Virus record (IMG/VR): IMGVR_UViG_3300025127_006147
Location: 130,482-194,481 of that record
DNA from: a virus
Length of the DNA: 64,000 nt
Direction: 5' to 3' (one strand)
The translations under genes and the position numbers were made by a program. Below, in pieces: positions 15,548-63,117 of this stretch (its first letter is position 1; each line of letters begins with the position of its first letter). Below the pieces are notes generated by a model. That model was not told the origin of the DNA. It saw only the letters and a program-made list of their open reading frames with translations, and made no database searches.

Positions 15548-15889
15548 ATGGAATTATCAATAAATAGAAAGACTATACCAATAGAAGTAATGGAGACTCC
15601 TAGTCAGAAGAGTTTAGGGATGATGGGTAGAAAAAAATTGAATGGTGGTATGTTATTTACTTTCCCAGAAATACAGGAACAATCTTTTTGGATGAAGAAC
15701 TGTCTAATTCCATTGGATATACTTATGTTGGTTGATAATAAAGTAACTAAAATTCATTCTAATTGTCCACCTTGTACTAGTAATCCTTGTAAACATTACC
15801 AAGGAATTGGTAACAAAGTTTTAGAATTGAATGGAGGTGAGTGTAAAAAGTTAGGCATTAAAATAGGGGATGAGTTAGAATTTATCTAA
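15548..15889 (+). CDS. DUF192 family protein
   Basis: GMMGRKKL.GGMLF.F...Q.QSFWMKNCLIPLDI, VLELNGG; TATTTAT 15537-15543. Confidence 0.88.
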   Translation: MELSINRKTIPIEVMETPSQKSLGMMGRKKLNGGMLFTFPEIQEQSFWMKNCLIPLDILMLVDNKVTKIHSNCPPCTSNPCKHYQGIGNKVLELNGGECKKLGIKIGDELEFI

Positions 15890-32885: not shown

Positions 32886-33554
32886 ATGAAAGATAATATA
32901 ATTAAAGATTTTAGTTTATACGCTAGAAGTATGAAAAACCCTATAAGTTCTACCACTTTGTGGGATTATGAAAATGCCTTAACTCCTTACATATTAGAAG
33001 AAAGGGAAATGAGAGCAACACAAATGGATATTTTTTCTAGATTAATGATGGAAAGAATAATATGGTTGTCTGGTCCAGTGATGGATATAACAGCACAAGT
33101 ATTACAAGCACAAATAATGTACTTAGATACAATTAATGATGACGACATTACATTACATATAGATTCTCCTGGTGGTTCAGTAAAAGCTGGTTTAGGTATC
33201 GTAGATGTAATGGAATATGTCAAATGTGATATCAGAACTTTAAATACTGGTATGGCAGCATCAATGGGTTCAGTACTATTAGGTGTGGGAACTAAAGGTA
33301 AAAGAAGTTCTTTACGTTACAGTAAAACAATGTTACATCAGTCTAGTGGTGGTGCGGTTGGTAATATCCAAGACGCTCGTATTACTATGGATGAATGGGA
33401 AAAAACTAATAAGATTTTATTTGAAATCTTAGGTAAAGCTTGTGGGAAAACAGCAAAAAGAGTAGAAAAAGACGCTCAAAGGGACTTGTGGTTAGATGCA
33501 AAACAAGCATTAGACTATGGAATAATCGATGAAATAATTCAAAAAAGAAGTTAA
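32886..33554 (+). CDS. clpP: Clp protease proteolytic subunit
   Basis: DIFSRL..ERII, IDSPGGSV, GMAASMGS, MLHQ, RDLWL.A..A..YGIID. Confidence 0.92.
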   Translation: MKDNIIKDFSLYARSMKNPISSTTLWDYENALTPYILEEREMRATQMDIFSRLMMERIIWLSGPVMDITAQVLQAQIMYLDTINDDDITLHIDSPGGSVKAGLGIVDVMEYVKCDIRTLNTGMAASMGSVLLGVGTKGKRSSLRYSKTMLHQSSGGAVGNIQDARITMDEWEKTNKILFEILGKACGKTAKRVEKDAQRDLWLDAKQALDYGIIDEIIQKRS

Positions 33555-33555
33555 A

Positions 33556-34158
33556 ATGAAAAAAGAACCAATTTGGGGAAGTAAGGGAGAAGAAGAATCT
33601 AACGCTTCCAGTAATAGTAATAACCAGATTACAAATGTAGATAACCATATCTATTTTTATTCAGAAGTAGAAAGACCTAAGATGTTAGAATTAAATAAGA
33701 AACTAAATGAGTTAGATGTAAAACTTCAAACCACTAGTTTAAAGTTAGGCACAGAATTACCTAAAATTTATCTTCACATTAATTCATATGGTGGTAGTAT
33801 TTTTGCTGGACTTTCAACCCTGGACACGATTAGAAATACTAAATGTGAAGTTGTTACAATTATCGAAGGATGTGCGGCTAGTGCAGGTACAATGATAAGT
33901 GTTGTGGGTAAAGAAAGATACATGCATAAACATGCTTACATGTTAATACATCAGTTAAGTGCTGGTAGTTGGGGTAAGTATTCAGACCTTGTTGATGATA
34001 TGGAAAACAATACAAGGTTAATGGAAATGATAAAAAAATTATATAAAGAATATACAAAAGTACCAGATAAAGAATTAGATGAAATTCTTAAACACGATTT
34101 ATGGTGGGATGCTGAAAAATGTTTAGAATATGGTTTAGTAGATAAAATTTTAGATTAA
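33556..34158 (+). CDS. second, divergent ClpP-family protease
   Basis: INSYGGSIFAG, GCAASAGT, LIHQLS, DLWWDAE.CL.YGLVD. Confidence 0.85.
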   Translation: MKKEPIWGSKGEEESNASSNSNNQITNVDNHIYFYSEVERPKMLELNKKLNELDVKLQTTSLKLGTELPKIYLHINSYGGSIFAGLSTLDTIRNTKCEVVTIIEGCAASAGTMISVVGKERYMHKHAYMLIHQLSAGSWGKYSDLVDDMENNTRLMEMIKKLYKEYTKVPDKELDEILKHDLWWDAEKCLEYGLVDKILD

Positions 34159-37331: not shown

Positions 37332-37350
37332 TCTCAGATATTTATGATTA

Positions 37351-40300
37351 ATGAGACAAAATTCACCACATATCAAAGAAAATATTGACCCAGAGTTACA
37401 ATGGGCTATAGATAATCAATATCGCACAAATCCTGAATTGAGAGATGAAATTTTAGATTATTTAAGTGATGATGATTTAGATTCATACATTGTTAATGTG
37501 GAACATGGGGACGTAAAATTTAAATTACCACCAGAAAAAATATTAGAAAAACTGACAGGACTATCCGATTTAGGTAATGTAGTAACTACAATGCGGGGAG
37601 GGAATGGTGTAGCTATAATAACCGATAAAAATTTAGTAGTTAAGATTACGGGAGATAAAGCAGAATATATAACAGCTAAAGAACTTGAGGGTATTAATAG
37701 TAAACACATAGTTAAAGTTCATGAAAGTAAAGTTATAGACCCAGACGACCAGAGTATTTATACCGAAGATAGTAAACCAGCATATTTAATTATAATGGAT
37801 AAAGTAGATTCTCCCACACCCCAACAAGAAAAGGATTGGTTTGATTGTTGTTGTAGTGAGGATAAACCCATATATGTAGATTTTACTGACCCTAATGGTG
37901 ATGCTGTAGTACATCCACCAGTGGATGATTATGATAAATGTAATAAGATTTATGATGATATAATGAATATTAGGAAAGAGGTTGAAAAGACAGGGAGAAG
38001 ATGGGTAGACATCGGTATAGATAATGTAGGGATGAAGGATGGTAATTACGTGTTAATTGATTTGGGAACAAATGACCCACTACCACTTACTGAAAGTAAA
38101 AAAATTATAAACGAAGGATTTTTTGACATCCTTAGTAATCTTTTTAAAAGACCAGAACAAAAAAGTGACACTCCTGACGAGTTAAATCAATACCTACAAC
38201 AACTACAGGATACTCTGGATGAAAATGAAATTTATGATGAACAAGTTTCCAAGTTAGTCGACCAGTTAAAAGATTCAGATTATATAGACCTGGTAGATTT
38301 CCCTACCATGTTAAGAGGATTAGAAAACAAACTTTTAAAAAGTGGAGAAAATAATGAAATAGTTATAGACTATTTGACTAGGTTAAATAACTCTTTACCT
38401 AAAAGAGCTAAATACGAAAAGAAATTATTACAAGGTCAAGTACCACAAGATAGTGAGTATTACGATGAGGTAGAACAAGAAAAATCTAGGATACCCAAAA
38501 AAATATTTAAAACTGAAAAAGAACTATTACAGATAGAGTTATTAAAACTACAAGAATGGGTTAAGAAAAATAACGTACCCGTTGCGGTAGTATTTGAAGG
38601 TAGAGATACTGCGGGTAAAGGTTCGACAATCAAAAAGTTAACAGAATATTTAGACCCTAAATATTTTAATATTGTCGCATTAGGAATTCCTAGTGAAGAC
38701 GAAAAAAAGAACTGGTTTAAGAGATATGAAAAATATATTGAACCAGGAAAGATAACTTTTTTTGATAGGAGTTGGTATAACAGAGGAATAGTAGAACCAG
38801 TGATGGGTTATTCTTCAAAAGAAGAGTACGAACAGTTTATGAAAGAAGTTGTTCCTTTTGAAAAAAGTTTATTAAGTAGAGGTGTAGTATTGATTAAGTT
38901 CTGGTTATCAATCACTCAAGGAAAACAAGAACAAAGATTTACAATTAGACAACAATCTCCACTTAAATATTGGAAGTACTCTCCAAACGATGAAGCTTCC
39001 AGAGAAAAATGGGATGAATATACTGACTACAAAGAAAGAGTATTAAAGGATACTTCTCACAGTGGTGCACCTTGGGTGGTTCTAGATTCTAATGATAAAA
39101 GAATGTCTGCTTTAAATGCTATGAGACATGTGTTAGACCAAGTAGATTATGATGGTAAAGATACTGAAACGGTTCGACCAAAATATCCTGAAGCTATTAG
39201 TACCATTAGAAGAAGATTAGACGAACAAAGTGAAGAGGAAGTTAAGTTTACAAAAAGTGCAGAGAGAGTATTAAACACTGCGTGGTCCATGTCGAAAGAT
39301 TCAAATCATAAGTTTACAGAGTTTAGGTCAGTCTTAGTTAAATTTTTTAACATACCTCTTACTACCGCTGAAGAGTTAACTTTTTTATGTAAATACAATA
39401 TAGCAAGGGGTAATGAAAAAGTAGAAGAATGGGTTATACCCTACATTTATGAATCCACAGTTTACGTTTATGGTGATTATGACACAGAATCTTATTATGA
39501 TGAGTGTGATGAAGAAGGTATGAGTGGAGCTTATGGGCAGGAGTGTGAATGTCTTGAGGGTGAAATTATGGATGAAGACGAGGCGGAATACAGACCTTGT
39601 GATGAACAGGAGTTAGAGGATATCCACTATGATGATGAGTGTGAGTGTAATAATTGGGAAGACCCAACAATAGAATTATATTATTATCCAATATATAGAA
39701 AAACAGTATACAGTACATCTGACCCAAATGAGTTAGGGTGTGTATACGACAGTCACCATGACCTAGATGATTATGTTAATTGTCTAGAAGTTGACGATGA
39801 ACTAGTACAAGTAATGAGTGAAGAGCATGAAGATGATACTGATAGGGTCATTGAAGATGAGTTCGAATGGGATAAAGACCAAACAATAGTGGATTCATGG
39901 GAGTATGAGATAGACACGGATGAATGGTCAGGGAGTTATATGATAAATAAAATAAATGAAATATATCCTGATAAACCAACTAAACTTAACGAACAACAGA
40001 TGTCTTTGTTTCCAACTGGAGAATGGAGACTACCAGTGGGTGAAGAAGATGAATTAGAAAAGTTAGAAAGAATGTTACCCGAATCTATAGTCAAGATAAT
40101 ATTTGAACGATGGGACAAAGAAGAACCTCTTAGAATGGATGATAGGGATTTTAAGTTGTTTGGCCTACCTAAAGATGAGAGATTATTATTATTTTTAATA
40201 GTGAGGTACTTACAAAATACCACCAGACCTATTCCTGTTGGTAGAGTGTGGGACTGTGATGATTTAGTTTCCTTATTTAATGATGAAGATAGGAGCACAG

Positions 40301-42357
40301 CACAAAAGTATTTGTGTGAAGAAGACTTTGATTATGAGAGTATGTACGGATATGATGAGTGGTACGATGGGATGTTGGATAACTTAGACGATATGAGTTG
40401 GAAATATATTACCACTTTACTAGGTGTAGATAAATCTACAGCAGAAAAACTTTTAGATGATAGTTACACAACTGAAGAAGAGGGAGAGATATGGAGAGAA
40501 AAAGAAGATGATATTGATAGGATTAAAGACTTAATGAGGTGGGCCAATGAACGTGCAGCAGCTGCCACTACCTTTTCTGCTATTAGACAAGATATTAAAG
40601 ATGAAATAGAAGAACATTTTGAAAATGAAGGAAAATTTGAGTACGACCATAATGGTAGTATTGTATATGAAATTAAAGGAGATTTAAAAGATTACGTACA
40701 AGACCCCGACACTTGGGACAACATAGAAAGATTTAATAACCATGAAGAGTTTAGAGATAGACACTTACAGGATATTTTATATGATTTTGACTTAAGGTAT
40801 AAAGGTCGTGACGGATTTCAACAAAGTCTTTCTGATGTAATATTCAATTTATTCATGGAAAATGATTTTGCAATTTGGTGGGATAGTGAAAAAGATTATT
40901 TAGATATTGACGGTAAATTTACAGACGGTTACTGGTACCCAGACTATGACTTTAATCAAGATTTTAGGGAGTACATGATGGAGGAATATTATGACGAACT
41001 AAGAGGAAATATAAATGAACAAAAAAATTACGATGCTGAGATAGAACTAACGAGTAATGACGCTTACATTGAAGAAACACCAATTACAAAACAAGAAGCT
41101 ACTATTCTTAATTTAGTATTGGATAGATTTTCTATAGAAGAACTTAATGAATTAGTGTCAAATGATGTAGCAGAAATAGGGAGTGATGTTGAAAATAAGT
41201 GGATAAATTTTGTTAAGTTAATCGGTGAAACGGCAAATACTCCAGAAACATTTACTAAAAGTACCAGATGGGCAAAATGGATGTTGGATAACCTTGATAA
41301 AGCAGAGTATGAAAATGAAGAAGGTGAAATTAATATTGATTTTAATAATGTGGACATTCTAACTAAAAATTACCCATCGGTTTATGAAGTAGAAGGAGAT
41401 GAACGTATATGGCAACAAGAATATAGAAAAGCTACAGTACACATACCAGCATTTGATAGTGAAGATGCAAACAATAGAGGTCAAAATAGTTTCTGGGAAT
41501 ATGACCCTGACTTTGAAACTTATGATTATGGGGATATGGACCCTGATTATTTTGATGTTGGAGATATCCAACATTACAATGTTTTAAAAGAACAAATCAT
41601 AGATACTGAAAATTTACCAGAAGAAGAGATAAGTCCTGACTTAGTTGAAGGTGACAAAGTATTTGTGTGGGATATAACACCTGACCCCGTACCACCAGGT
41701 GGAACTTCTAACATTATCCCTTCTACAGTTATTGGGGTGGTGACAGAAGTAATGCCAGATGATATACAACAGAGAAGAGGTGAGTACCGAGGAGGTATAA
41801 AATACATTATAGACACTTCTTCAGGTTTGATAGGACTATACCAAGGAGTGGAAGATTATAACCATTATGCCGATGATGGTGGAGGTAGAGATAAGTGGGT
41901 TAAACTAAACAAACAAAACCTACAAGAGATTAAAAAAATCACCGACCTCAAGAACATTGAAAGACAAAAAGATTTTACATTAAAAAAATCTTTTATGGAA
42001 TCAATAAACAATTTAACCGAAAAAGATATTACACCAATTAAAGAAAGTGTGGTAGAAAGTAGAGTTATATTATTTAATTACTTAGATGGAATCACAAAAA
42101 CGAATCTAATAAAAGAAGAAGAGTTACCTAACCTTTTAATTGGTGGTAGAACCTGGACTGATAGACTTACAGTATCCAATTCAATAGATTTAGATGACAT
42201 CAAGGAAAACTCTAATAAGGTAAGAGATATCATATTTAATAATACAAAACTAAAATTAGATAACCCTTCCTTTATTGAAACTAAAAGAGATTTGTTAGAG
42301 ACAGCTAAACAAACTGTAACTCTCTGGAAAGAAACTTCAAATACTATTTCTAAGTAG
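37351..42357 (+). CDS. 1668-aa putative polyprotein: protein-kinase-like / polyphosphate kinase 2 / Cys-rich acidic / acidic / FW-YDP module / GD-W repeat / tail
   Basis: Kinase motifs GGNG, VVKIT, DIGIDN, IDLG; PPK2 motifs FEGRDTAGKG, FFDRSWYNRG, LKYWK; junctions IKE|N 37372, LTE|S 38086, INE|G 38107, LDE|Q 39217, LNE|Q 39985, INE|Q 41011, LKE|Q 41584, LQE|I 41920; TATTTAT 37339-37345. Confidence 0.8.
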   Translation: MRQNSPHIKENIDPELQWAIDNQYRTNPELRDEILDYLSDDDLDSYIVNVEHGDVKFKLPPEKILEKLTGLSDLGNVVTTMRGGNGVAIITDKNLVVKITGDKAEYITAKELEGINSKHIVKVHESKVIDPDDQSIYTEDSKPAYLIIMDKVDSPTPQQEKDWFDCCCSEDKPIYVDFTDPNGDAVVHPPVDDYDKCNKIYDDIMNIRKEVEKTGRRWVDIGIDNVGMKDGNYVLIDLGTNDPLPLTESKKIINEGFFDILSNLFKRPEQKSDTPDELNQYLQQLQDTLDENEIYDEQVSKLVDQLKDSDYIDLVDFPTMLRGLENKLLKSGENNEIVIDYLTRLNNSLPKRAKYEKKLLQGQVPQDSEYYDEVEQEKSRIPKKIFKTEKELLQIELLKLQEWVKKNNVPVAVVFEGRDTAGKGSTIKKLTEYLDPKYFNIVALGIPSEDEKKNWFKRYEKYIEPGKITFFDRSWYNRGIVEPVMGYSSKEEYEQFMKEVVPFEKSLLSRGVVLIKFWLSITQGKQEQRFTIRQQSPLKYWKYSPNDEASREKWDEYTDYKERVLKDTSHSGAPWVVLDSNDKRMSALNAMRHVLDQVDYDGKDTETVRPKYPEAISTIRRRLDEQSEEEVKFTKSAERVLNTAWSMSKDSNHKFTEFRSVLVKFFNIPLTTAEELTFLCKYNIARGNEKVEEWVIPYIYESTVYVYGDYDTESYYDECDEEGMSGAYGQECECLEGEIMDEDEAEYRPCDEQELEDIHYDDECECNNWEDPTIELYYYPIYRKTVYSTSDPNELGCVYDSHHDLDDYVNCLEVDDELVQVMSEEHEDDTDRVIEDEFEWDKDQTIVDSWEYEIDTDEWSGSYMINKINEIYPDKPTKLNEQQMSLFPTGEWRLPVGEEDELEKLERMLPESIVKIIFERWDKEEPLRMDDRDFKLFGLPKDERLLLFLIVRYLQNTTRPIPVGRVWDCDDLVSLFNDEDRSTAQKYLCEEDFDYESMYGYDEWYDGMLDNLDDMSWKYITTLLGVDKSTAEKLLDDSYTTEEEGEIWREKEDDIDRIKDLMRWANERAAAATTFSAIRQDIKDEIEEHFENEGKFEYDHNGSIVYEIKGDLKDYVQDPDTWDNIERFNNHEEFRDRHLQDILYDFDLRYKGRDGFQQSLSDVIFNLFMENDFAIWWDSEKDYLDIDGKFTDGYWYPDYDFNQDFREYMMEEYYDELRGNINEQKNYDAEIELTSNDAYIEETPITKQEATILNLVLDRFSIEELNELVSNDVAEIGSDVENKWINFVKLIGETANTPETFTKSTRWAKWMLDNLDKAEYENEEGEINIDFNNVDILTKNYPSVYEVEGDERIWQQEYRKATVHIPAFDSEDANNRGQNSFWEYDPDFETYDYGDMDPDYFDVGDIQHYNVLKEQIIDTENLPEEEISPDLVEGDKVFVWDITPDPVPPGGTSNIIPSTVIGVVTEVMPDDIQQRRGEYRGGIKYIIDTSSGLIGLYQGVEDYNHYADDGGGRDKWVKLNKQNLQEIKKITDLKNIERQKDFTLKKSFMESINNLTEKDITPIKESVVESRVILFNYLDGITKTNLIKEEELPNLLIGGRTWTDRLTVSNSIDLDDIKENSNKVRDIIFNNTKLKLDNPSFIETKRDLLETAKQTVTLWKETSNTISK

Positions 42358-43926: not shown

Positions 43927-43961
43927 TAATAAATTCCATTAATATGAAGTATTTATAGTTA

Positions 43962-45272
43962 ATGGAAAGAAGAAAAACTATAAAAGAACAAACACCTAAC
44001 TTAACTCCTGATGAGATTGTTGGTGATTTCCTAGATTTTTGTCAAGATAATTTAGGTTACAAAACACCAGCGTCTGTAGAATTAGTAACAGATAGAGATA
44101 AGTTAGTTACTTTAGCTTCTTACAACTTAAATGACAACAGTGTAAGGGTATACTCTAAAAATAGAGCACTTGCAGATATACTAAGAAGTATAGCACACGA
44201 ACTAGTTCACCACAAACAATTAGAAGATGGTAGAATTGACATTAACAATCCCCCACAGGATGTTGGTGGTGAAATTGAAGATGAAGCAAATGCTGTAGCT
44301 GGACAATTAGTAAAAGCTTTTGGTTATACTGGTGTAAACATATATGAAAATTGGGATAAAACTGGTTGTGCAGACCCAGACCAAGGGAAATTCTTTTGTC
44401 AAGATAAAGGGGAAAATATTGGAATAAGTGACATCTTTAAAGGAGATGGACACAATATAATCCATGGTTTTGCACAAAAGTTTCACTTATCCGATGTAAC
44501 ACCAGAATCAGAAGAAACTTATAATGACCCTGCTCAGGTAAAACCAAAAGAAAATAATTTCAAACCTAACCTTAGAAAAGGACCATTTAGTATTCCAGCA
44601 CAGAGTAGAGATTTACTAACTTTAATTAATGAAGAGAAAGACCCAAATAAATTAAAGTTAATACAAGAAGTAATTCATAACCAATTAAGGTATCTTAAGG
44701 AAAATAAAGAAATTTTAAAAGAACAAGTGGAATCTTCAGAGGGTGAAACTATAACACCTATGGATGTTAAAATAATGAATCACATTATTAAAGATTATAG
44801 TAAAAATGAAATAGAGGAGATGGTAAACACTTCCGTTTATGATGTGGATTTAAGAAATGTTTTAAAACTATACGGTGAACATGACTTAGGAGGAATGAAA
44901 CCAAAACAATTAATACAGTTTATTTATGATAATAATTATAATGTTACTGAAAACAATGTAGGTGATTTACTTCCACCATTAAATACATACCGAGTAGTAC
45001 AAAATTCAGTTACAGTACAAAGAGTAGCACAAGATTATGAAGTCGAAGGTAAAGACACTAACTTTAACGGGTTTATGTGTGGGGTTAAAGAAGACTTCTG
45101 GGGTTACGACCCAGAAATTATTAATCGGGAAGTCATAGATGAGGATTTTATTGGTGATGAAGAATGGATATCCGCATCTGAGAACGGTAAAAGGATGTGG
45201 GACGGAACTGGTAGTATGATAAAAGGAAATGAAAAATTCAACCCGTATAATATAGAGTGTGACGAAGATTAA
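43962..45272 (+). CDS. leader-tagged three-module protein: HExxH Zn-peptidase-like / linker module / FW-YDP module
   Basis: IKE|Q 43980, IYE|N 44340, LKE|Q 44715; SIAHELVHHKQ...EDEANA; TATTTATA 43950-43957. Confidence 0.75.
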   Translation: MERRKTIKEQTPNLTPDEIVGDFLDFCQDNLGYKTPASVELVTDRDKLVTLASYNLNDNSVRVYSKNRALADILRSIAHELVHHKQLEDGRIDINNPPQDVGGEIEDEANAVAGQLVKAFGYTGVNIYENWDKTGCADPDQGKFFCQDKGENIGISDIFKGDGHNIIHGFAQKFHLSDVTPESEETYNDPAQVKPKENNFKPNLRKGPFSIPAQSRDLLTLINEEKDPNKLKLIQEVIHNQLRYLKENKEILKEQVESSEGETITPMDVKIMNHIIKDYSKNEIEEMVNTSVYDVDLRNVLKLYGEHDLGGMKPKQLIQFIYDNNYNVTENNVGDLLPPLNTYRVVQNSVTVQRVAQDYEVEGKDTNFNGFMCGVKEDFWGYDPEIINREVIDEDFIGDEEWISASENGKRMWDGTGSMIKGNEKFNPYNIECDED

Positions 45273-45277
45273 AAAAT

Positions 45278-46642
45278 ATGAAAATTGTAATTACAGAAGA
45301 ACAACTTCAAAAAATATTAAAGATTAAGTCAACTTTAAATGAAGCTGCTTTAGCTTCTCCTTTAGCTAACGTAGATGTAAAAATAAATAGTGGTTATGGT
45401 GGAAGATGGGGGAGAATGCACCATGGTGCAGACCTAAAAGCTTCAAGTGGTACCCAACTAGTAGCTCCAGCAGATGGAGAAGTCATAGATGCAAAGATAA
45501 GAAGAAACGCGTGTGGAGGAACTTTATATATAGACCATTTGAACGGTTTAAAAACTCGTTATTGTCATTTAAAAAGAATAGATGTTAATAAAGGTGATAC
45601 TGTAACTAAAGGACAAGTTGTAGGATTGACAGGGGGTGCTAGAGGTGATAGAGGTAGAGGAAGGTCGACTGGAGCTCACTTACATTATGAAGTATATAAA
45701 GATGGTAAAACAGTAGACCCAGAACCATATTTAAGTGGGGCAGACATAATTAATAATGTAGCTCCAGACGAACATGGTAAGAATACCCAAGTACCAGAAG
45801 GTTCTATTACCTTATATGATGGTATGGGTAAAGGTAGAAGAGGAATGAGACCCCAGGTAAAAGAAATGCAACAAGACCTAATTACTCTTAATTATGTATT
45901 ACCACGATTTGGGGTTGACGGTAAATTTGGTCCAGAAACTTTAAAAGCGGTCAACGCTTTTCAGTCTGACCACGGATTTGAGGAAAGTAATATTGTTGAT
46001 GAAGAGACTTTAAAAGCAATGAAGAATTCTGAAAATATAAATAAAAATCCTGAAATCAACGACCCAAAAGAAATTAAAAGACAAGCTAGAGAAGGTAATA
46101 TAAAACCTTTTGACCCAGCCGTAATAGACGCCATCAATAAAGCTAGTGATGATAATGGGTTAAGTAGAGAGTTAATGTTTACTATAGCTAATATAGAATC
46201 AGGTGGTAACCCTACTGCTAAAAATAGAAGAAGTGGAGCATCAGGACTTTATCAAATAATGCCTAAATATTTTAGTGATTATGGAGTTACAAGAACTACT
46301 GTTTGGGACCCTTACACAAATGCAGATGCAGCTGCTAAGGGATTAAATAGAAAAATAAATCGTATAAATAGTAAACTAGGTATTGACCCCACAAATCCCC
46401 AAATTTATATGGCACACAATCAAGGGAGTCAGGGTTTTCAAATAATATACACTGCTTGTAAAGAGTTTGGTAATTTAGACGGAAAAGAATCTTTACAACA
46501 AGCTTCTAACAGTTTAGGATTTGGAAGGAGAGTGGGTAGTAGAATATATAGAAATATGAGAGGTAATAAAGGAAACCACCCATGTCAGTTTATGGATAGT
46601 TGGGTGGATATATATAATAGTAAAAAGACTTCTTACGCGTAA
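45278..46642 (+). CDS. leader-tagged M23 peptidase + peptidoglycan-binding domain + lytic transglycosylase (SLT-like)
   Basis: MKIVITEEQL...LNE|A; HHGAD, STGAHLHYE; VDGKFGPET.KAV..FQ; IANIESGGNP.A, ASGLYQI. Confidence 0.88.
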   Translation: MKIVITEEQLQKILKIKSTLNEAALASPLANVDVKINSGYGGRWGRMHHGADLKASSGTQLVAPADGEVIDAKIRRNACGGTLYIDHLNGLKTRYCHLKRIDVNKGDTVTKGQVVGLTGGARGDRGRGRSTGAHLHYEVYKDGKTVDPEPYLSGADIINNVAPDEHGKNTQVPEGSITLYDGMGKGRRGMRPQVKEMQQDLITLNYVLPRFGVDGKFGPETLKAVNAFQSDHGFEESNIVDEETLKAMKNSENINKNPEINDPKEIKRQAREGNIKPFDPAVIDAINKASDDNGLSRELMFTIANIESGGNPTAKNRRSGASGLYQIMPKYFSDYGVTRTTVWDPYTNADAAAKGLNRKINRINSKLGIDPTNPQIYMAHNQGSQGFQIIYTACKEFGNLDGKESLQQASNSLGFGRRVGSRIYRNMRGNKGNHPCQFMDSWVDIYNSKKTSYA

Positions 46643-49600
46643 TGTATACACTAAAAGAAATAAGAAAGATTTTAAATATTCAAGAACAAGACCGTAATGA
46701 AGACTCTTGGTCTGATGAAGATGCTATCGAAACAAATGAAGGAGACGGTAAACCTTTCACCCCTTTTGAATTAGCCATACTCAAATTAATCCACCAAAAC
46801 TTAACTAAAGGAAATATGGAGGATGTCCTACGTGACCACGCTTATCCTGGAAACGTGGGTAAGAAATGGATTAACATTGCAAAATTAGTTGGTCTAAGAC
46901 ATAGTATTCAACAAGGACATTCAATAAATGATATTGCATATGATAAAAAATATGTTAAGTGGGCATTAGATAATTGGACTGAAGACGGTGACTATGCTTC
47001 TATAGAAAAACCAATAAAAGTTCCACCTAAAAGATATGAAGTTGACCGAGAAGAATCAGGTTCCCAGGTAGTATATAAAGACGGTTCAACAACTGTAATT
47101 GCATATGATGAAGACATGGCAGGTGATACCGCAAATAATCAGTTTTGGGACTGGGGTGGTGAAATGGAGACTAATGATTATGGTGATTATGAAACTTATG
47201 ATAGTGAAATTACTGGTGTTAGACCCTTAGAAGTATTAAGTGAAGAAAAACAAAAAGAATTTAATGAGTTAGTTAAATTGTGTGAATTGGGTGAAAAGTA
47301 CACACCTAGAATTGTTGGTGGAGTTACCAGAGAAACTCTCACACAATTTTTAAAAGAAAATATAAATGATATGGTTTATAGGGATGAACCCAAAGAAAAA
47401 CATGTCAGAAGAATGAATCGTCCTTTGGGACCTTTGGAGGGATTCCCGATAGAGAAATTCAAAAACATACCTCCACCTAAAAACGAGTCCACAGAAACTG
47501 AAGAAGAAATAGATTATCTTGATAGTATTCCAGTAGAGAAAGGATTTGTTAATAGTGCAGACGATGTAGATGGACATTTCAAAAAGTTTTTAGAACCAAA
47601 AGGGTTAGAGTTTCCAACAGAAGAATTAAAAGACGTAATGAAAGGAGTTAAATCTATAATACTCCAATTGAAGTACCATTACAACAGACCTAGACCTTAT
47701 CAAGTAGCGGATGCTAAAAATTTAAAATTAGATTCAGAAAATTTAAAGTCTGCTAGTACACCTTCCTATCCTTCTGGACATGCAACACAAGGTACTTTCT
47801 TAGGTAGATATCTAGCTGACCTATACCCAGAGTACGAAAAAGAATTAAGACAGATAGGTGAGGATATTGCATTCAGTAGAAACATGGCAAAGGTTCACTA
47901 CCCTAGTGATTCAGAGTTTGGTAAAATGTTAGGTAATGATTTGTATGAGTTCGTATATCAACGAGAAGTAGAACTACAAGAACACTTTGAAGAATCTTCT
48001 TCAGAATATGGTGGAGACAAACTTCTCGTACCAATAAAAGCCTTGGAACAGTACGCTAACACATATTTAAAAGAAGATTTTAAAAATGAAATGAGTAATG
48101 TATTAGAATGTCTTGAGAGGACTTGTTATCAGATAGGTGAACCATATTATCTTTCAATGGTAGACGAGGATGGAGAATTAGTTCAACTACAATCAAATTG
48201 TAATGATTGTACTCACTTATTGGATGAGATACTACAAACTTTAGATGCGGAACTAATTAAAATGGGATTTTTAAAAGGGAATGATAATGGTATGTTAGTA
48301 AAACCATTCCCAAAAGAATATAATAGATGGGTAGAAGACATAATGCAAGAGATTAACCCAGGTTTTTTTATAGATGATAACGATGAGGTGAGTTATAAAG
48401 ATTTAGGAAATGCTCATGACGCATATTATGACTTGAGTGAACAAATTTCACCAGAAGCCTTACAAGACTTATATGCATTTCATGGTGAAGAATTAAAAGA
48501 ACGTAAGTTCGGTGAAAAAATTAAAGGTTTTACACAGAAAAAAAAAGAAGATTTAAAAAAGTTTTGGTTTGAATTAACAAAGGGTGCTAAACGTGAACGT
48601 AAAGAAACGGCAGAAGCAGTTAAGATATTAGCAAGACTTATTAAAAATAGAGACAGTGTTACCCAAGAGGACCTCACATTTCTAAAACAACAATCAGGAG
48701 ATATAGCGAGAATTATCGCCTTAATTAGTTTAGGTGCTGTATCAGTTGTAATACCAGTAGGTTTAGAAAAACTATTAAACCAGTATGGTATTTCTATTAT
48801 GCCTAGAAAGAGAAGTAAAGACGAAGATGGTAATGGGATAGATGACTATATAGATGTTACACAGAATGATAATCTACTAAACGAACAACAAGAAATTAGT
48901 CCAGTTTTAAAATATGGTGATATAATAACCATTCTAGATATACCAACACCCGAAATTGGCTTTTGGGAGGATGTACCTAGAGAAAAAAGACAAAGTTATG
49001 CATTTGGAGAACCAGAATTATTTAAACCTTACTGGGTATGGAAACCAAGTTATGGTGCACCAAAAAAAGAAGGAACTTACATTATAGTACCTCTCGATGA
49101 GGTATCTGAGTTACAAAAATTAGGACACTTAAAGCCAGAAGATGAAGGGTTACCGGGACATTTACATAAAAAACTAAGAACAATAAGAAGAAGTAGAGGT
49201 GACCAATGGTTAATGATAAATCATACAGAACCATTAAATGAATCAAAACAACAATTCAATCCAGAACTTAAAGAAGGTGATTTTATAAGAATTTATGATG
49301 TTGATAAAGACTCACCAATCATTAGTCGGGAAGGTTATACAGACCAAGACCGTTATACGATGTATGGTGGTGATAGTATACCAGAAATATTTAAAGTTTA
49401 TGTTGTTATGTTGGTAACCAAATATAAAACAACACAGTTTGGAAGAGAGGGTGAAAAAATTTATGTATTAATGGGACCAGACATGAACCCAAGTCGTCCA
49501 TATTATATATTTCCCTCACATGATACTTGGGTTAAAGTACCAAAAGAAGAAGGGTTGGAAGCGTTTAAAGAGGGTTTAGAGTCCTATCACCGTATGCATT

Positions 49601-52600
49601 TAAATGAGTCTGACCCTAAAAAAGGTACGGGAAAAAAACCAAAAGGTAGTGGTAGAAGATTATATACAGATGAAGACCCTAGTGACACAGTATCAGTTAA
49701 GTTTAGAACTAAAGAAGACATTGTAGACACATTAAATAAACCTTCGTTTAAATCTAAATCACACAAAAGACAATCACAAATCATTAATCTTATACACCAG
49801 AGAGTAAGAGCTGCACATAAAAACGCAAAAGACCCTAAAACCAAGAAAAGACTTAAAAGAGCTTTAGATTATATTACAAACAAAAAAGAAAGGTCAAAAG
49901 AAAAAACTAAAAGATTAAATAAATTAAACGAGTCTACTCAAACAAACCAACCACTTAATAGGGGTGATGAGATTATGATTGTAGACTTAGACCATAGTAC
50001 ACAAGGATACATGACTGGTAGACTTCCTATATCTATGGTAACACCAGACACCTTCAAACCTTATAGGATTTTTGGAATCACACACAGACGAAGAGAAAAC
50101 TGGGAGGGTCCAGATGCAGATACAAGAATTTATCAATTAGAACCTGTAGATATCACTGACGAAGAAAGAACTCAAGACATGATATCTGGTGGAGGCCAAA
50201 GAAGAGGTTTACATATGATACCAGGAGATACTTGGATACTACAAAAAAGACCAGAAAATTGGTATGATAATTTACATGAATCAAAACAAGAAATCAGTCC
50301 TAGGTTAGAAATTGGGGATAAAATTAAAGTAATTCAAATCGACGGGGAACACGAGAATGAATTAGGTGAACAACCAAACGAGGCCGCTAGAACATTAGCA
50401 AACACAAGAAAACATGGTATTGGAACTAGATTTTCAAAACCTGCTATAAAAGCCAACCCACAAAGATTTAGAAAATACACAAGAGACAAATATTTAAATG
50501 AACAACAAGAAATTAACCCAGAGTTAGAAATCGGTGATAAAATTAAAGTAATTGAAGTTGATGGTGAACACGGAAGAATGCCTAAATTATTTACAACAGT
50601 TTATGAAGTTATAAGAAGTTGGAGAAGGAATGTGAATGAAAATGGAGTGAGGGGAGAATGGTATGACTTGCTTCCAGAAAATTTTAGGGAACAGAAAAAG
50701 GTTGGAGAAAGGGATGTTAGGAATGATTCTAAAACAATATATCACGGTGATATCTGGATAAAGGTTAACCCAACTGAAACCCTGAATGAACAAAGAGAAC
50801 CCACAGAATTAAATCCTGAATTAAAAATGGGGGATGAAATTATGGTAGTGGATGTAAATAGTGAAAGAGAAAGTGGTGAGACATCGTACACGACTCCACC
50901 TACAGGACGTAAATCAGAAAGATATATTCCTTATGTGGTTGTAGAAAAAAATTCTAATGGACATCAGTCAGAATGGCGTTGGAAATACGTGGTTGTGGAA
51001 AAGAGATTTTTAGAAAAAATTCTTAAACTAATGGAGGAACGACCAGGTTATGTGAAAAGTGTTCCTGGTCGAAATTTAGCCCCTGGTTATGATACAGATT
51101 GGACAGGAAACCTTATAGAAATGAATGCTAAGTTTTTATATCCTTGGGTATACCAGTGGATAAAAACTGGTGAGTTTAATGAACTTAGTAAATTTGGACT
51201 AACTGAAACTTTAAATGAAGAGACTACTATCTTTGGACAAGGTTTAATGAATAACATTAAACCAGAAGAGTTTGAAGGTACGGATGAAGAATGGGAAGAA
51301 ATGGTAACATTAAATTCAGATGAGGTATTAGATATAGAAGATGATTATGAATATGTTGGAGGTATAACTGACCCATCAACAGGATTTGTTGCCCCATCTA
51401 AAGAAGTCACCAATAATATATGTAAAGTAAAAGGTTTCTGTAAAGCACAAGGACCTATTACTTTTGGACAATTAAGAGAATTAGTGAAAGCTGCAAGTAG
51501 TAAAAGACTTAAATCTGACATGGGACGTGGTACATTTAGAGAACTATGGAGAATAGTACCATTCTTTATACCACAAGTTTTATTAGCTGCTGTTGGAGCA
51601 GAACTAGCAAGAGTCATTAACAAAATAATATCTCCAGCTTTAAAGGAAGCTGGAAGTTATAAATCCTGGTGGGGTCAAGTAGTTATGAAAACTATGAATG
51701 TTGCGGAAGGAACAGCTTTTCCTAATATGGTTTTAGGTGATGACCCACTTACCAAAGTATTTTTTATCTCCGATGGTCTATTACATATGATTAGTGATAA
51801 GTACAAATTAAAGTTTGCGAAATATGTTGCGGATGTAGCAGCAAGTAAACCTGACGATGAACCAGTTCCAGATTGGTTTGTTGAAAATTTATTAAGAGAT
51901 TATTTAAATCAAAAGTTTTTATTAGACCCACCATTACCAGTCAAGGTAAGTAACGAACCACTAAATGAACAACAGTTCCCTTTTAATCCCAACAACAAAG
52001 ATATAGAAAGGGACCATCCAGAAGGTGAACCAGACTGGTCTATAAGACGTGGTGACCAACACTACGCTATGAATGTAGAAAATACACCTAACGAACCCGT
52101 TGCGGCGTTTAATAACTATTTGGTTAAGAATTCACCTTTTATAATTGAAGGTTTTGATTTTTATCTAAGTGCAGTTCCAGGTAATATGCCTCAATCAGCT
52201 ATTGTCGATGTGTATGTTCCCATGATGGATGATAGTGCAGTTGCGGATGATATTTGGAATAAGGATAGAATTTATTATGAAAGAACCCAGGATGGGTCTA
52301 GTGACCGTATGATATACCAAGGAAGAAAAGAGAAACTGCATAATCTTGATTATGACCAAAAATTTCCTGAATTTACATACTATGAAGATTTTCAAGACCA
52401 ACATCCAGAATATATTGAGTACTTAGAAAAAGAATTAGGTGATAGCAATTTACTTAATGAACCTGGGGCACAATATGAAATGATTTGGAGAACCAAAAGA
52501 ATGAACTTACAAAATGAATTAGATAGTATGGCTAAATTATTTGGTGTAAGTCGGGCTTTAATCAATAGGAACCCTAGAAAACCATGGAAGAGACAAAGAG

Positions 52601-52665
52601 ACAATTATAATAATGAAAAAATTAGACCAGGTAAGTTAGTACCAAGAGGATGGCCTCGTCCTTAA
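46642..52665 (+). CDS. 2007-aa putative polyprotein: FW module / PAP2-family phosphatase / hydrophobic module / six GD-W repeats with an inserted basic module / further modules
   Basis: KYHYNRPRP, PSYPSGHA, SRNMAKVHYPSD (PAP2); L-[NH]-E-[QSE] junctions at 48877, 49234, 49600, 49924, 50272, 50494, 50782, 51211, 51961; also LKE|N 47350 and LQE|H 47974. Confidence 0.8.
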   Translation: MYTLKEIRKILNIQEQDRNEDSWSDEDAIETNEGDGKPFTPFELAILKLIHQNLTKGNMEDVLRDHAYPGNVGKKWINIAKLVGLRHSIQQGHSINDIAYDKKYVKWALDNWTEDGDYASIEKPIKVPPKRYEVDREESGSQVVYKDGSTTVIAYDEDMAGDTANNQFWDWGGEMETNDYGDYETYDSEITGVRPLEVLSEEKQKEFNELVKLCELGEKYTPRIVGGVTRETLTQFLKENINDMVYRDEPKEKHVRRMNRPLGPLEGFPIEKFKNIPPPKNESTETEEEIDYLDSIPVEKGFVNSADDVDGHFKKFLEPKGLEFPTEELKDVMKGVKSIILQLKYHYNRPRPYQVADAKNLKLDSENLKSASTPSYPSGHATQGTFLGRYLADLYPEYEKELRQIGEDIAFSRNMAKVHYPSDSEFGKMLGNDLYEFVYQREVELQEHFEESSSEYGGDKLLVPIKALEQYANTYLKEDFKNEMSNVLECLERTCYQIGEPYYLSMVDEDGELVQLQSNCNDCTHLLDEILQTLDAELIKMGFLKGNDNGMLVKPFPKEYNRWVEDIMQEINPGFFIDDNDEVSYKDLGNAHDAYYDLSEQISPEALQDLYAFHGEELKERKFGEKIKGFTQKKKEDLKKFWFELTKGAKRERKETAEAVKILARLIKNRDSVTQEDLTFLKQQSGDIARIIALISLGAVSVVIPVGLEKLLNQYGISIMPRKRSKDEDGNGIDDYIDVTQNDNLLNEQQEISPVLKYGDIITILDIPTPEIGFWEDVPREKRQSYAFGEPELFKPYWVWKPSYGAPKKEGTYIIVPLDEVSELQKLGHLKPEDEGLPGHLHKKLRTIRRSRGDQWLMINHTEPLNESKQQFNPELKEGDFIRIYDVDKDSPIISREGYTDQDRYTMYGGDSIPEIFKVYVVMLVTKYKTTQFGREGEKIYVLMGPDMNPSRPYYIFPSHDTWVKVPKEEGLEAFKEGLESYHRMHLNESDPKKGTGKKPKGSGRRLYTDEDPSDTVSVKFRTKEDIVDTLNKPSFKSKSHKRQSQIINLIHQRVRAAHKNAKDPKTKKRLKRALDYITNKKERSKEKTKRLNKLNESTQTNQPLNRGDEIMIVDLDHSTQGYMTGRLPISMVTPDTFKPYRIFGITHRRRENWEGPDADTRIYQLEPVDITDEERTQDMISGGGQRRGLHMIPGDTWILQKRPENWYDNLHESKQEISPRLEIGDKIKVIQIDGEHENELGEQPNEAARTLANTRKHGIGTRFSKPAIKANPQRFRKYTRDKYLNEQQEINPELEIGDKIKVIEVDGEHGRMPKLFTTVYEVIRSWRRNVNENGVRGEWYDLLPENFREQKKVGERDVRNDSKTIYHGDIWIKVNPTETLNEQREPTELNPELKMGDEIMVVDVNSERESGETSYTTPPTGRKSERYIPYVVVEKNSNGHQSEWRWKYVVVEKRFLEKILKLMEERPGYVKSVPGRNLAPGYDTDWTGNLIEMNAKFLYPWVYQWIKTGEFNELSKFGLTETLNEETTIFGQGLMNNIKPEEFEGTDEEWEEMVTLNSDEVLDIEDDYEYVGGITDPSTGFVAPSKEVTNNICKVKGFCKAQGPITFGQLRELVKAASSKRLKSDMGRGTFRELWRIVPFFIPQVLLAAVGAELARVINKIISPALKEAGSYKSWWGQVVMKTMNVAEGTAFPNMVLGDDPLTKVFFISDGLLHMISDKYKLKFAKYVADVAASKPDDEPVPDWFVENLLRDYLNQKFLLDPPLPVKVSNEPLNEQQFPFNPNNKDIERDHPEGEPDWSIRRGDQHYAMNVENTPNEPVAAFNNYLVKNSPFIIEGFDFYLSAVPGNMPQSAIVDVYVPMMDDSAVADDIWNKDRIYYERTQDGSSDRMIYQGRKEKLHNLDYDQKFPEFTYYEDFQDQHPEYIEYLEKELGDSNLLNEPGAQYEMIWRTKRMNLQNELDSMAKLFGVSRALINRNPRKPWKRQRDNYNNEKIRPGKLVPRGWPRP
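48877..51200 (+). repeat. six tandem, protein-level diverged GD-W modules
   Basis: Each starts after L-x-E-[QS] with P.L..GD.I.[IV]; five end in D.W[ILV] or YQWI. Confidence 0.8.
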
Positions 52666-61380: not shown

Positions 61381-63117
61381 TTAATAGTCTATACCAGGTC
61401 CAAACGTCCTAGTATCTTTTATTGTGAAATAAACGTCAGTGTTAGGGATAAGTTTATTAATATCATATCTAATCTCACTTCTAGTGTTTCTGTAGTCTTC
61501 AAAACCATACCTAGGACCATTCACATACATATCAACATGTAACCTGTTACCAAAACCCTCCATATCTATATTCTGGATGTTTTTTACTATCACACCTTCA
61601 ACTGATTCTATTTCATTAATAAATTCCATTTCACCCAGACCCATTTCTTCAGTTTCTTTCTCCATTCTTATTAGAGACTGGTCTATAATGGATTGTATAC
61701 CTTTAATAAGTTTATCGGAGTTAGAATTTACCTGTTCAGATAGATTTTTATTACTATTGTTTATTTTAAATTCAACCTTAGAGTTAGGTAATAGTTTATT
61801 AATCTCCATTTCCATATAATACATGATATTTTCATAAGCGTAATTTGGCATATAAGAAGTACTCACATTAAGTGTAGCAAAAACCATAAAGTCATAAGGT
61901 CCAAATTTTGGAAAAACCTCATCTACCACAATACTTTCTATAGAATCTATATCGGCCCTTGTTTCCACATCAACCCAATCCTCTCTACTGACGGATACTA
62001 AAGATTGGTTTAATAAAGTTTGTAGTGTCAATATAAGTTTCCTATCTCTATTGAACTGTTCAGATAATGTACCACCTATATTTGTACAAATAGGGTTATC
62101 AATATAAAAATATCTACTACCTTCAGGTTTAGGTAAAACCATTTTATCAGTATAAACATATTGTTTGTCTCTAATAACAACTTCTTTTTGTCTACCACCT
62201 ATAATAGTTTGACCCTCTAAAGTACCATAACCTACCAAGTCTACATTTCTTTGTTTAGAAACATAAACATTTCCTGTTATCCTATATGCTCCACTATCTG
62301 GATTCATTCGTGTGGAAGGTAAGTTTTCAATTTTCCACACCTTCTTACATTGTATAGTTTTTAATTCCCCATTTTTTTCCATAATTAAATCTATTCCTAA
62401 AAATACATCTATTATGTCACCACCACCACCCTGGTGTATAAGTTCCCATCCACAATCCAACATAGATTCAAGAACAAAATCCTCAACTTCCTCACCTTGT
62501 AAAGAATAATATAAAGATTGTGTGGTATATAAATCAGAGTCACTAATAAACCTATCATATAAAATTTCTGGGTAATTACCTACAGTATCAACAACATCCT
62601 GAAGTATATTTGTATTACCCTCACTTAAATCATTTAACAAATCTTCAACAGTGAAAGTTTTAGATTGTTCTACTATGTCTGTAATTAAAACAGCCAAGTC
62701 AGAATAGTTAGTGTCTAGTTTGTTTACTGGGTCCCACTCTAAGTTTCCATCTACTTCTCTATATAGAAAACCTAGTTCTGGTATACGGTTATTAATAAAT
62801 TCATCTATAGTACCATAAGTTATCTTACCTGTTTCAGAAGGCCACTGCCATTTTCTAGTAGGGTCTAAATCTTTAAGTCTAGATAATGTAGATAAAGTTC
62901 TTTCTTGTTCTTCTGGTGACATTACCTCATTCCACTTTTGTTTTTTCATATCAAAAACTTTTCTAATCAGTGGATACGTTATCTTTCTATAAAGTGATTT
63001 GTTTAACGTATTACACAATTTTTTAGATGCGGAACCATTAGGGTATTTAGTACAACCCCGAGGTAAAGTACCAGTACCATTTATTTCTTCAGATAATATG
63101 TTTAATAGTTTAATCAC
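61381..63117 (-). CDS. leader-tagged three-module protein with a restriction-endonuclease-fold (PD-(D/E)xK/Mrr-like) domain and two related C-terminal modules
   Basis: GTG start, ILSE|E; QGEEVEDFV...GWEL...GIDLIM...IQCKK; junctions TLSE|Q and NLSE|Q precede two similar modules (LQTLLNQSL / IQSIIDQSL). Confidence 0.65.
   Translation of the reverse strand: MIKLLNILSEEINGTGTLPRGCTKYPNGSASKKLCNTLNKSLYRKITYPLIRKVFDMKKQKWNEVMSPEEQERTLSTLSRLKDLDPTRKWQWPSETGKITYGTIDEFINNRIPELGFLYREVDGNLEWDPVNKLDTNYSDLAVLITDIVEQSKTFTVEDLLNDLSEGNTNILQDVVDTVGNYPEILYDRFISDSDLYTTQSLYYSLQGEEVEDFVLESMLDCGWELIHQGGGGDIIDVFLGIDLIMEKNGELKTIQCKKVWKIENLPSTRMNPDSGAYRITGNVYVSKQRNVDLVGYGTLEGQTIIGGRQKEVVIRDKQYVYTDKMVLPKPEGSRYFYIDNPICTNIGGTLSEQFNRDRKLILTLQTLLNQSLVSVSREDWVDVETRADIDSIESIVVDEVFPKFGPYDFMVFATLNVSTSYMPNYAYENIMYYMEMEINKLLPNSKVEFKINNSNKNLSEQVNSNSDKLIKGIQSIIDQSLIRMEKETEEMGLGEMEFINEIESVEGVIVKNIQNIDMEGFGNRLHVDMYVNGPRYGFEDYRNTRSEIRYDINKLIPNTDVYFTIKDTRTFGPGIDY

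Follow-up and report, generated by a model that had tools for sequence, protein, structure and literature searches.

A candidate capsid cargo polyprotein with gp21-type protease motifs at its module joints in an uncultured marine T4-type phage

Organization of the locus

The window analyzed here is the last 64 kb (64,000 nucleotides, positions 130,482 to 194,481) of a 194,481-bp IMG/VR virus record (IMGVR_UViG_3300025127_006147; 32% G+C, CheckV completeness 61%) of an uncultured marine giant T4-type phage. Its source is a contractile-tailed phage, and the record encodes neck and baseplate wedge proteins together with ribonucleotide reductase, a DnaB-type helicase and a family-B DNA polymerase. 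The subject of this study is an open reading frame (ORF) on the plus strand (46642-52665) that is open throughout, encodes 2007 amino acids (aa) and forms the final gene of an operon at 43962-52665. A protein identical to its product (P0003) is encoded on an assembly of ~270 kb.

The 2007-aa protein is composed of about 12 autonomous modules, namely a leader, module A, a PAP2 module, module C, six r domains, and modules B, X and Y (Table 1; the arrow marks the candidate cleavage position). The linkers that join them are short and unstructured and close with (L/I)-x-E; in most, this is L-N-E, with Q, S, E or H as the next residue. The initial annotation of this DNA had divided the ORF at 11 such junctions, and each coordinate that it gave is the position at which the Leu codon of an L-x-E tripeptide starts. 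All 11 sites are real, and the division into modules was borne out by the ends of BLAST blocks in homologues and by linkers in an AlphaFold model. The junction Glu residues are 239, 447, 748, 867, 989, 1097, 1213, 1287, 1383, 1526 and 1776. Candidate sites absent from that first list lie at residues 15 (IQE↓Q, in the leader), 201 (LSE↓E), 600 (LSE↓Q), 620 (LKE↓R) and 1940 (LNE↓P); [LI]xE is kept at site 600 in 11 of 11 homologues that span it and at site 620 in 80%.

Table 1. Features of the polyprotein operon and of the second polyprotein gene (window coordinates)
Feature	Position	Strand	Remarks
Second polyprotein gene, 1668 aa, behind TATTTAT	37339..42357	+	Leader MRQNSPHIKE↓N, PPK2, Cys-rich acidic module, module A, one r-type module
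TATTTATA, late-promoter-like	43950..43957	+	5 nt upstream of the operon's first gene; putative promoter
436-aa gene, leader MERRKTIKE↓Q, opens the operon	43962..45272	+	Orthologue at the same place in G001
454-aa cell-wall hydrolase: M23 peptidase, PG_binding_1, SLT	45278..46642	+	Pfam 92, 48 and 55 bits
Leader MYTLKEIRKILNIQE↓Q, residues 1-15, candidate capsid-targeting sequence	46642..46686	+	Orthologues keep IQE, INE or IKE
Module A, residues 16-239, ends LKE↓N, possible inner site LSE↓E (201)	46687..47358	+	
PAP2 acid-phosphatase module, residues 240-447, ends LQE↓H	47359..47982	+	Pfam PAP2 32.9 bits, residues 342-431
Module C, residues 448-748, hydrophobic helix, ends LNE↓Q	47983..48885	+	Candidate inner sites LSE↓Q (600), LKE↓R (620)
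r1 (749-867) and r2 (868-989), both ending LNE↓S	48886..49608	+	Self-HMM i-E 6e-38, 2e-25
Module B, residues 990-1097, very basic, starts SDPKKGTGKKPKGS, ends LNE↓S	49609..49932	+	83/120 shorter homologues match
r3 (1098-1213, LHE↓S), r4 (1214-1287, truncated, LNE↓Q), r5 (1288-1383, LNE↓Q), r6 (1384-1526, LNE↓E)	49933..51219	+	
Module X, residues 1527-1776, most conserved, hydrophobic helix, ends LNE↓Q	51220..51969	+	
Module Y, residues 1777-2007, inner LNE↓P (1940), stop codon included	51970..52665	+	

Against Pfam, the whole protein had PAP2 as its sole match; 10 modules searched one by one were without a match there at E <= 1, and likewise in PHROGs. A peptidase domain was found by Pfam neither in the whole protein nor in its modules. 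A PDB sequence search with modules X and Y together returned nothing, and the ESM Atlas held no usable match for r3 or module X. The term multi-enzyme, used in the initial annotation, thus overstates the 2007-aa ORF, in which only PAP2 is recognizable, but suits the wider family, where superoxide dismutase (SOD), cupredoxin, kinases, nucleotidyltransferases and DUF192 occur. Within the r series, r4 (50281-50502) is a truncated r domain fused to the basic motif ARTL-N-R-x-G-x-G-x-RF-K-x-AIKANP-x-RFR, which in many short proteins (P0159-P0171) sits right before the module B junction.

Motif sites and predicted structure of the 2007-aa protein

The tripeptide LNE occurs nine times in the 2007-aa protein, compared to 0.87 expected from composition (none of 20,000 shuffles reached nine, and the maximum was six) and 1.24 predicted from its rate in the remaining genome (Poisson P = 6e-6). 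The caution in the initial annotation that L-x-E is frequent by chance was well placed, as generic [LI]xE was present 35 times versus 25 expected (P = 0.04). Because the generic motif scarcely exceeds background, the signal is LNE together with its position, not L-x-E as such. The codons at the junctions vary (TTA, CTA, CTG or CTT; AAT or AAC; GAA or GAG), and the constraint therefore acts on the peptide. On the same grounds, a conserved DNA joint serving for recombination was discarded as an explanation.

BLAST blocks between the 2007-aa protein and 119 homologues begin and stop at the junction residues. An AlphaFold model of residues 730-1800 (1071 residues, 25 sequences, mean pLDDT 58.6) agrees with these boundaries: all nine sites that it covers fall in segments with pLDDT<50, for which the chance expectation is ~5e-4 because such segments make up 43% of residues. 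Confident small beta-rich domains lie between the low-confidence stretches, r1 and r2 reaching pLDDT values of 80-92. A Foldseek search with the 1071-residue model returned only weak SH3/Tudor-like rows (E > 0.04), a modeling lead to a possible SH3/Tudor-like fold of the r domain. Module X modeled from 17 sequences gave a pLDDT of 39.7 and no fold.

Module shuffling and breakpoints in homologues

In a search of 5.8 billion clustered proteins, metagenomes from JGI, ENA, Logan, NCBI and Tara yielded at least 122 homologues of 1100-3500 residues and at least 325 that were shorter. When the 12 modules were mapped onto the 122 long homologues, 117 different architectures were obtained. The order A-P-C-...-X-Y of the 2007-aa ORF is replaced elsewhere by X-A-Y or A-A-X-...-P-Y, module Y comes first in one protein, and module A is present one to three times per homologue at varying positions. 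Even relatives that are 78-92% identical differ in r modules, B and X by gain, loss and duplication. In these relatives, modules are thus reordered, duplicated, deleted or present as separate genes, with the joints falling at the linkers. Other Pfam domains in the family include AAA_33 kinase, DUF192, Fe/Mn superoxide dismutase, cupredoxin, several nucleotidyltransferases (NTases), Nudix and DUF2237. In tblastn searches of 50,697 phage records only module X was matched, in four uncultured huge phages, and a whole-ORF search of IMG/VR for related loci found no relative.

The position of the motif relative to these rearrangements was assessed in 84 dereplicated homologues, using BLAST block ends that were internal in both partners and lay <=6 residues from a tripeptide; the null was obtained by circularly shifting the sites 1000 times inside each protein. 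Block ends, averaged per site, were strongly enriched at LNE (observed 11.7, null 2.6, z = 20.6) and at [LI]xE (observed 6.2, null 2.6, z = 25.7), the observed value being reached by 0 of 1000 shifts in either case, and enrichment persisted at [LI]xE with x other than Asn (observed 5.6, null 2.6, z = 19). Control tripeptides were not enriched, with observed values of 2.0 for [LI]xD, 2.5 for VxE and 2.2 for [FM]xE (null about 2.6) and of 2.1 for LN[KQD] (null about 2.5). When the test was repeated on 27 homologues of the 37351-42357 product, z was 14.1 for [LI]NE and 12.4 for [LI]xE, and the controls were flat. The enrichment at boundaries that the initial annotation had proposed to look for is therefore strong at [LI]xE and absent at control tripeptides in two families.

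Conservation at individual sites follows the same pattern. Site 1383 reads LNEQ, ISEH, LTEQ or IVEQ in homologues, with [LI]xE kept in 86%, and the LQE↓H of site 447 is replaced by LNEQ or LSEQ. L-x-E inside domains loses its Glu in homologues, as at residues 1669 (LKD) and 1613 (LKA). Among 496 unique [LI]NE contexts, the P3 residue was Leu in 63% and Ile in 37%. In distant homologues, [LI]xE lies 8-19 residues ahead of the start of each unrelated Pfam enzyme domain: ITE↓N precedes SOD, ITE↓S cupredoxin, LNE↓Q DUF192, IKE↓E AAA_33 and IKE↓V DUF6934, and the NTase is also preceded by such a site.

Leaders of stand-alone modules

Modules that occur as separate genes carry amphipathic leaders of 10-25 residues ending in the same motif as the joints. 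In several shorter proteins, an N-terminal leader of 10-21 residues directly precedes module B (e.g., MNLQETIRRILREELLNE↓T and MGQKEHIRRILREELINE↓S), and its last residues are LNE↓S, LNE↓T or INE↓S. Module X was present in 116 clusters at 50% identity in a scan of 1.84 billion representatives, and its stand-alone core is preceded by a short leader ending in [LI]xE in 21 of 30 cases (e.g., MELKRYDDFIINE↓, MYIKRFDDIINE↓ and MKRIDSYEEFLILE↓). It also exists as a 212-residue protein starting with M-VTE↓ETDIFGQG, and in P0123 and P0124 the PAP2 module is joined directly to module X via SLDE↓E. In a 735-kb uncultured huge phage (LR756501.1, L105:5902-6615), module X forms a 237-aa gene of ~30% identity with a 13-residue leader, MDYMKSYKDKLNE↓E. 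As matches to S77-like proteases in that phage were only sub-threshold (24 bits), the link to huge phages is a lead.

Since the same tripeptide ends both, leaders and joints are equivalent. In P0158, a 340-aa protein combining DUF2237 and module B, a complete Met-leader, MNLQESITRILREELLNE↓SDPK, sits internally between the two modules and is likely a fossil of a recent fusion of two leader-bearing genes. Leader sites of the [LI]xE type in the neighboring genes and in the other candidate polyprotein genes include IKE↓N, IKE↓Q, IKE↓S, ITE↓E, LSE↓E and LILE↓K. The leaders of the stand-alone modules and of the 2007-aa ORF are similar in style to MKTYQEFIAE, the T4 capsid-targeting sequence, the coding sequence of which was confirmed at two places in the T4 record.

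The module B type, with its DPK-x-GTGKKPKGS start, has no Pfam family and is extremely common in marine metagenomes (P0156-P0242), either in small genes or in fusions with DUF2237, Nudix, PF01329 and other partners. By analogy with the basic internal proteins (IPs) of T4, it may be a DNA-binding internal protein.

A gp21-type protease in a relative of the source phage

A relative, G001, was found via the baseplate wedge protein, in which it is 78% identical; its record comprises 245,874 bp. Gene order around the polyprotein is the same in G001, with a PPK2-type polyprotein (2457 aa), a 435-aa gene, an M23/SLT hydrolase and a 3039-aa polyprotein of A, X, r and Y modules. The junction of module Y reads EPLNE↓QQFPF in the 2007-aa ORF and EELNE↓QDFPF in G001. 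The 454-aa hydrolase, the 3' end of which overlaps the start of the polyprotein gene (46642), has the leader MKIVITE↓E...STLNE↓A, and its G001 orthologue begins MKILITE↓K...LLNE↓E.

The head module of G001 follows the T4 order of portal, small core genes, protease, scaffold-position ORF and capsid protein. The protease (L104:10472-11182, minus strand), at 82 bits a match to Peptidase_S77 (PF03420), shares 34% identity with T4 gp21, and the LNHP and SSRG motifs of the two align. The capsid protein (Gp23, 215 bits) has a sole [LI]NE, the INE↓A of its N-terminal arm between the IAQLYENQ and RR motifs, and T4 gp23 is cut in the region that matches this position. Six LNE and two INE occur in an acidic 560-residue ORF between protease and capsid protein. 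The capsid INE↓A and the LNE and INE tripeptides of the scaffold-position ORF are predicted to be maturation sites. As judged from these sequences, the lineage has a gp21-type enzyme, and its obligatory substrates carry the same motif as the polyprotein joints; the enzyme would presumably prefer Asn at P2.

T4 gp21 requires Leu or Ile at P3 and Glu at P1 (PMC9026906). As [LI] at P3 and E at P1 alone were enriched at breakpoints, the requirement of the joint motif equals this published specificity. The initial annotation had noted that the protease gene is not in the window, which was confirmed; because a contig-wide search found no prohead protease gene, the absence holds for the whole 194-kb fragment. 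The search for a gp21-like S77 protease that it had suggested was thus negative on this 61%-complete contig and positive in G001.

Other candidate polyprotein genes and a putative late promoter

The initial annotation had extended the same organization to five other ORFs. This stands for 37351-42357, on the strength of the breakpoint test, while 43962-45272, 15882-17795 and 61381-63117 were judged by eye only. Its statement that modules recur between genes holds in homologues, given 117 orders in 122 proteins, and within the genome for three of the six genes only. Module A is common to the 2007-aa ORF and the 37351-42357 product (P0002, residues 1244-1415). The r-type start motif has eight occurrences in the genome versus 0.46 expected, all of them in the 2007-aa ORF, 37351-42357 and 12457-15501, the latter two with one r-type module start each. 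With a hidden Markov model (HMM) of r1-r6, no other gene of the genome matched at E <= 1, and P0002 and 12457-15501 are linked to the series by the short start motif alone.

The PPK2 enzyme of the 1668-aa polyprotein matches Pfam with 240 bits. In the same protein, a strongly acidic Cys-rich module (about 39400-39950, residues ~690-860) lies between LDE↓Q and LNE↓Q. Stretches such as CDEEGMSGAYGQECECLEGE and ECECNNWEDP occur in it, it gave no family match, and it may bind metal. About 3 kb upstream of this gene are two tandem paralogous ClpP genes on the plus strand (32886-33554 and 33556-34158), the first matching CLP_protease with 191 bits; a ClpP1/P2-type heteromer is possible.

Of 190 ORFs, 42 have the sequence TATTTAT(A) within 30 nt upstream, at a distance of 11-29 nt from the start codon; the copies at 37339-37345 and 43950-43957 are among these. 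Genes preceded by it include neck, baseplate and tail genes as well as the polyprotein genes 37351, 43962, 12457 and 15882 (four of the six listed). Judging from this distribution, TATTTAT is probably the late promoter of the lineage, and because it is common to structural and candidate cargo genes, late coexpression of the two is suggested. The T4 late promoter TATAAATA was not enriched in the window (22 matches versus 15.7 expected).

Proposed function and alternative explanations

Taken together, these data make it probable, with a fair margin for doubt, that the 2007-aa chain is a polyprotein loaded into the capsid as cargo and processed by the prohead protease, as an extension of the T4 system. 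The operon would be expressed late, alongside the structural genes, and the N-terminal leader would carry the whole chain into the prohead scaffolding core. There, a gp21-type serine protease would cut after each junction Glu, as it does with the capsid propeptide and scaffold. The freed folded pieces (70-300 residues) would be too large to leave, remain with the DNA and be ejected into the host, such that a single targeting signal would deliver many proteins. Fusion of adjacent leader-bearing genes would turn a leader cleavage site into an internal joint, and for this reason cargo could easily be added, lost and shuffled. Late expression, leader targeting to the prohead core, cutting after the junction Glu, retention and ejection are steps that we infer. 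Hydrophobic helices of ~20 residues (e.g., IIALISLGAVSVVIPVGL and VPFFIPQVLLAAVGAEL) lie within 47983-48885, 51220-51969, 12457-15501 and 15882-17795, and some released pieces with such helices might insert into the host membrane at ejection.

The interpretation in the initial annotation, which was of the same kind, gains from the motif enrichment, the S77 protease in the lineage, the module shuffling and the leaders; it loses from a protease that lies off the contig and from the overstated enzyme content of the 2007-aa ORF. Several further observations weigh against it. Cleavage, packaging and ejection are all deduced from sequence. Neither a major capsid protein (gp23) nor an S77 prohead protease gene (PF03420) was found on the 194-kb contig, from which the head module is wholly absent; that module is known only from the relative G001, and there the capsid cut site is only predicted. 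The AlphaFold model of residues 730-1800 is poor overall, given its mean pLDDT and its 43% of low-confidence residues. Genome-wide, an N-terminal [LI]xE within 25 residues was found in 60 ORFs versus 45-56 in controls, which is no clear enrichment. The z-scores of the breakpoint test overstate independence because the proteins tested are related, although the contrast between [LI]xE and the control tripeptides is clear despite shared ancestry. Finally, six of the 11 sites each lie ahead of one copy of a small paralogous repeat (r1-r6), with which the linker may have been duplicated, and these six are therefore not independent. As generic L-x-E is moreover near background, the 2007-aa ORF by itself is weak evidence, and the main support comes from sequence comparison with its homologues.

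The best-surviving alternative, which we nevertheless regard as unlikely, is an intact, very large multidomain ('polyvalent') virion or ejected protein, in which L-N-E is a flexible linker or domain cap spread by repeat duplication. The six sites that flank paralogous repeats are what such duplication would leave, cleavage of the 2007-aa chain is itself a prediction, and shuffled beads-on-a-string proteins are delivered uncut in some phages and plasmids, N4 vRNAP and TraC1 being examples (PMC5512222). A linker of this origin does not readily account for the motif also bordering unrelated modules and enzymes or terminating the N-terminal leaders of single-module genes. Its residue requirements are those of gp21 (L or I at P3, E at P1), with Asp at P1 or Val, Phe or Met at P3 unenriched, and its concentration in the G001 scaffold would be unexpected for a purely structural linker.

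Somewhat less likely still, the chain might be cut by the head protease and act as a core or scaffold component, its pieces being degraded and expelled like those of T4 gp22, gp67 and gp68. The density of LNE is similar to that in the predicted G001 scaffold, and T4 core proteins are cut at many sites (PMC9026906). However, only small peptides leave the T4 head (PMC9026906), whereas the modules described here measure 70-300 residues and several are predicted to fold. The modules also include enzymes that have no part in assembly, namely PAP2 in this ORF and PPK2, SOD and kinases elsewhere in the family, and the fast gain and loss of modules between close relatives is at odds with a size-determining scaffold.

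Cutting of the joints by some other protease or at a place other than the capsid, with the tandem ClpP homologues or a host enzyme as candidates, appears improbable. Both ClpP genes have catalytic Ser and His motifs (32886-34158), and the gp21-type gene is not on this contig. ClpP, however, degrades unfolded chains processively, without a defined tripeptide motif, and the joint motif fits gp21, the lineage homologue of which adjoins a capsid protein and scaffold bearing the same motif; the ClpP pair was thus judged an unlikely processing enzyme. A chance or compositional artifact of an AT-rich genome, suggested by the commonness of L, N and E and by generic [LI]xE being only 1.4-fold enriched, is almost certainly not the explanation and is not supported, since 0 of 20,000 shuffles reach nine LNE, breakpoint z-scores exceed 20 with flat controls and the second family agrees.

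Significance

The case is evenly balanced for a general scheme in which the prohead-protease site serves giant T4-type phages of the sea, and perhaps certain huge phages, as a universal joint at which leader-plus-module genes freely fuse, split and shuffle. Hundreds of different cargo polyproteins of up to ~3,200 residues would then carry enzymes and binding domains for injection in ever-changing sets, and the injected proteome of an uncultured phage could be read from (L/I)-x-E-bounded modules. If the joints are cut, one capsid-targeting signal could load a dozen proteins in fixed stoichiometry, and cargo could evolve through in-frame fusion or deletion at a three-residue joint. This would explain the extreme mosaicism of giant ORFs that are common and unannotated in ocean metagenomes. 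It would also provide a sequence rule to predict the proteins injected by uncultured T4-type phages, the predicted set here including a cell-wall hydrolase, phosphatases, nucleotidyltransferases, superoxide dismutase and polyphosphate kinase, all candidates for early host takeover or counter-defence. A natural design for multiprotein delivery by T4-like packaging vectors would likewise be at hand.

Comparison with known systems

African swine fever virus, a large double-stranded DNA virus, also encodes several virion-internal proteins in one chain. During maturation, its pS273R protease cleaves the polyproteins pp220 and pp62 at Gly-Gly-X, a short motif that recurs along them. Virus, protease and motif are unrelated to those considered here, and the cleavage yields core-shell proteins with a structural role, arranged in a fixed order, not shuffled cargo.

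The giant phages phiKZ, 201phi2-1 and SPN3US process head or ejection proteins by gp175 or gp245 (PMC9026906, PMC10052503). They resemble the present case as giant myoviruses with many packaged proteins and a distant gp21 homologue that cuts after Glu in a three-residue motif, several copies of which occur per substrate. Their motif is S/A/G-x-E, however, not L/I-x-E. In SPN3US, the cuts identified, protease self-cleavage aside, remove N-terminal propeptides that are later chopped up, and they do not free a series of folded modules (PMC10052503). Homology of the modules to phiKZ or SPN3US head proteins was not found in the tblastn search of phage records or in PHROGs.

Polyvalent proteins, as described by Iyer et al. 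2017 (PMC5512222), have 2-15 domains, are predicted to be packaged and injected with DNA, are extremely mosaic and have been likened to viral polyproteins. The 2007-aa protein and its homologues share with them the many unrelated domains in one phage polypeptide and the mosaicism (~12 modules; 117 architectures in 122 homologues). Release of polyvalent proteins is ascribed there to embedded peptidases (zincin-like MPTase, C-terminal assemblin-like and LonC), and the passages retrieved from that paper describe neither a recurrent cleavage motif nor a linker. In contrast, the 2007-aa ORF has no embedded peptidase or hallmark domain of that family according to Pfam and PHROGs.

Full-text literature searches turned up no account of cargo polyproteins of the capsid in which prohead-protease sites form the joints, which is absence of evidence only. 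The claim of novelty in the initial annotation has to be qualified, as the T4 capsid-targeting system and polyvalent proteins (PMC5512222) are close precedents.

In T4 itself, the core proteins gp22, gp67 and gp68 are cut at many (L/I)-x-E sites in the prohead, and LNE is comparably abundant in the predicted G001 scaffold. Unlike the polyprotein, they are small, nonenzymatic assembly proteins, and their fragments mostly exit the head. The closest parallel is provided by internal proteins of T4, namely IPI, IPII and IPIII, and by Alt, which combine a capsid-targeting sequence (CTS) with gp21 processing (PMC3012670, PMC9026906). The CTS has been suggested to let T4-like phages load varied proteins (PMC9026906, PMC3012670). 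Both systems have a short N-terminal leader ending in (L/I)-x-E and a gp21-type S77 protease in the lineage (here in the relative G001), and both have, as predicted for the marine phages, late genes for cargo that is diverse and fast evolving, partly enzymatic and partly basic. Each T4 cargo protein, however, is a separate small gene with one leader, Alt having also one C-terminal cut, whereas the marine phages appear to string up to a dozen or more modules into single chains, 1100-3500 residues long, in which each joint bears the motif and between which modules move. With CTS targeting and gp21 processing as a direct precedent, the finding would thus extend the T4 mechanism rather than found a new one.

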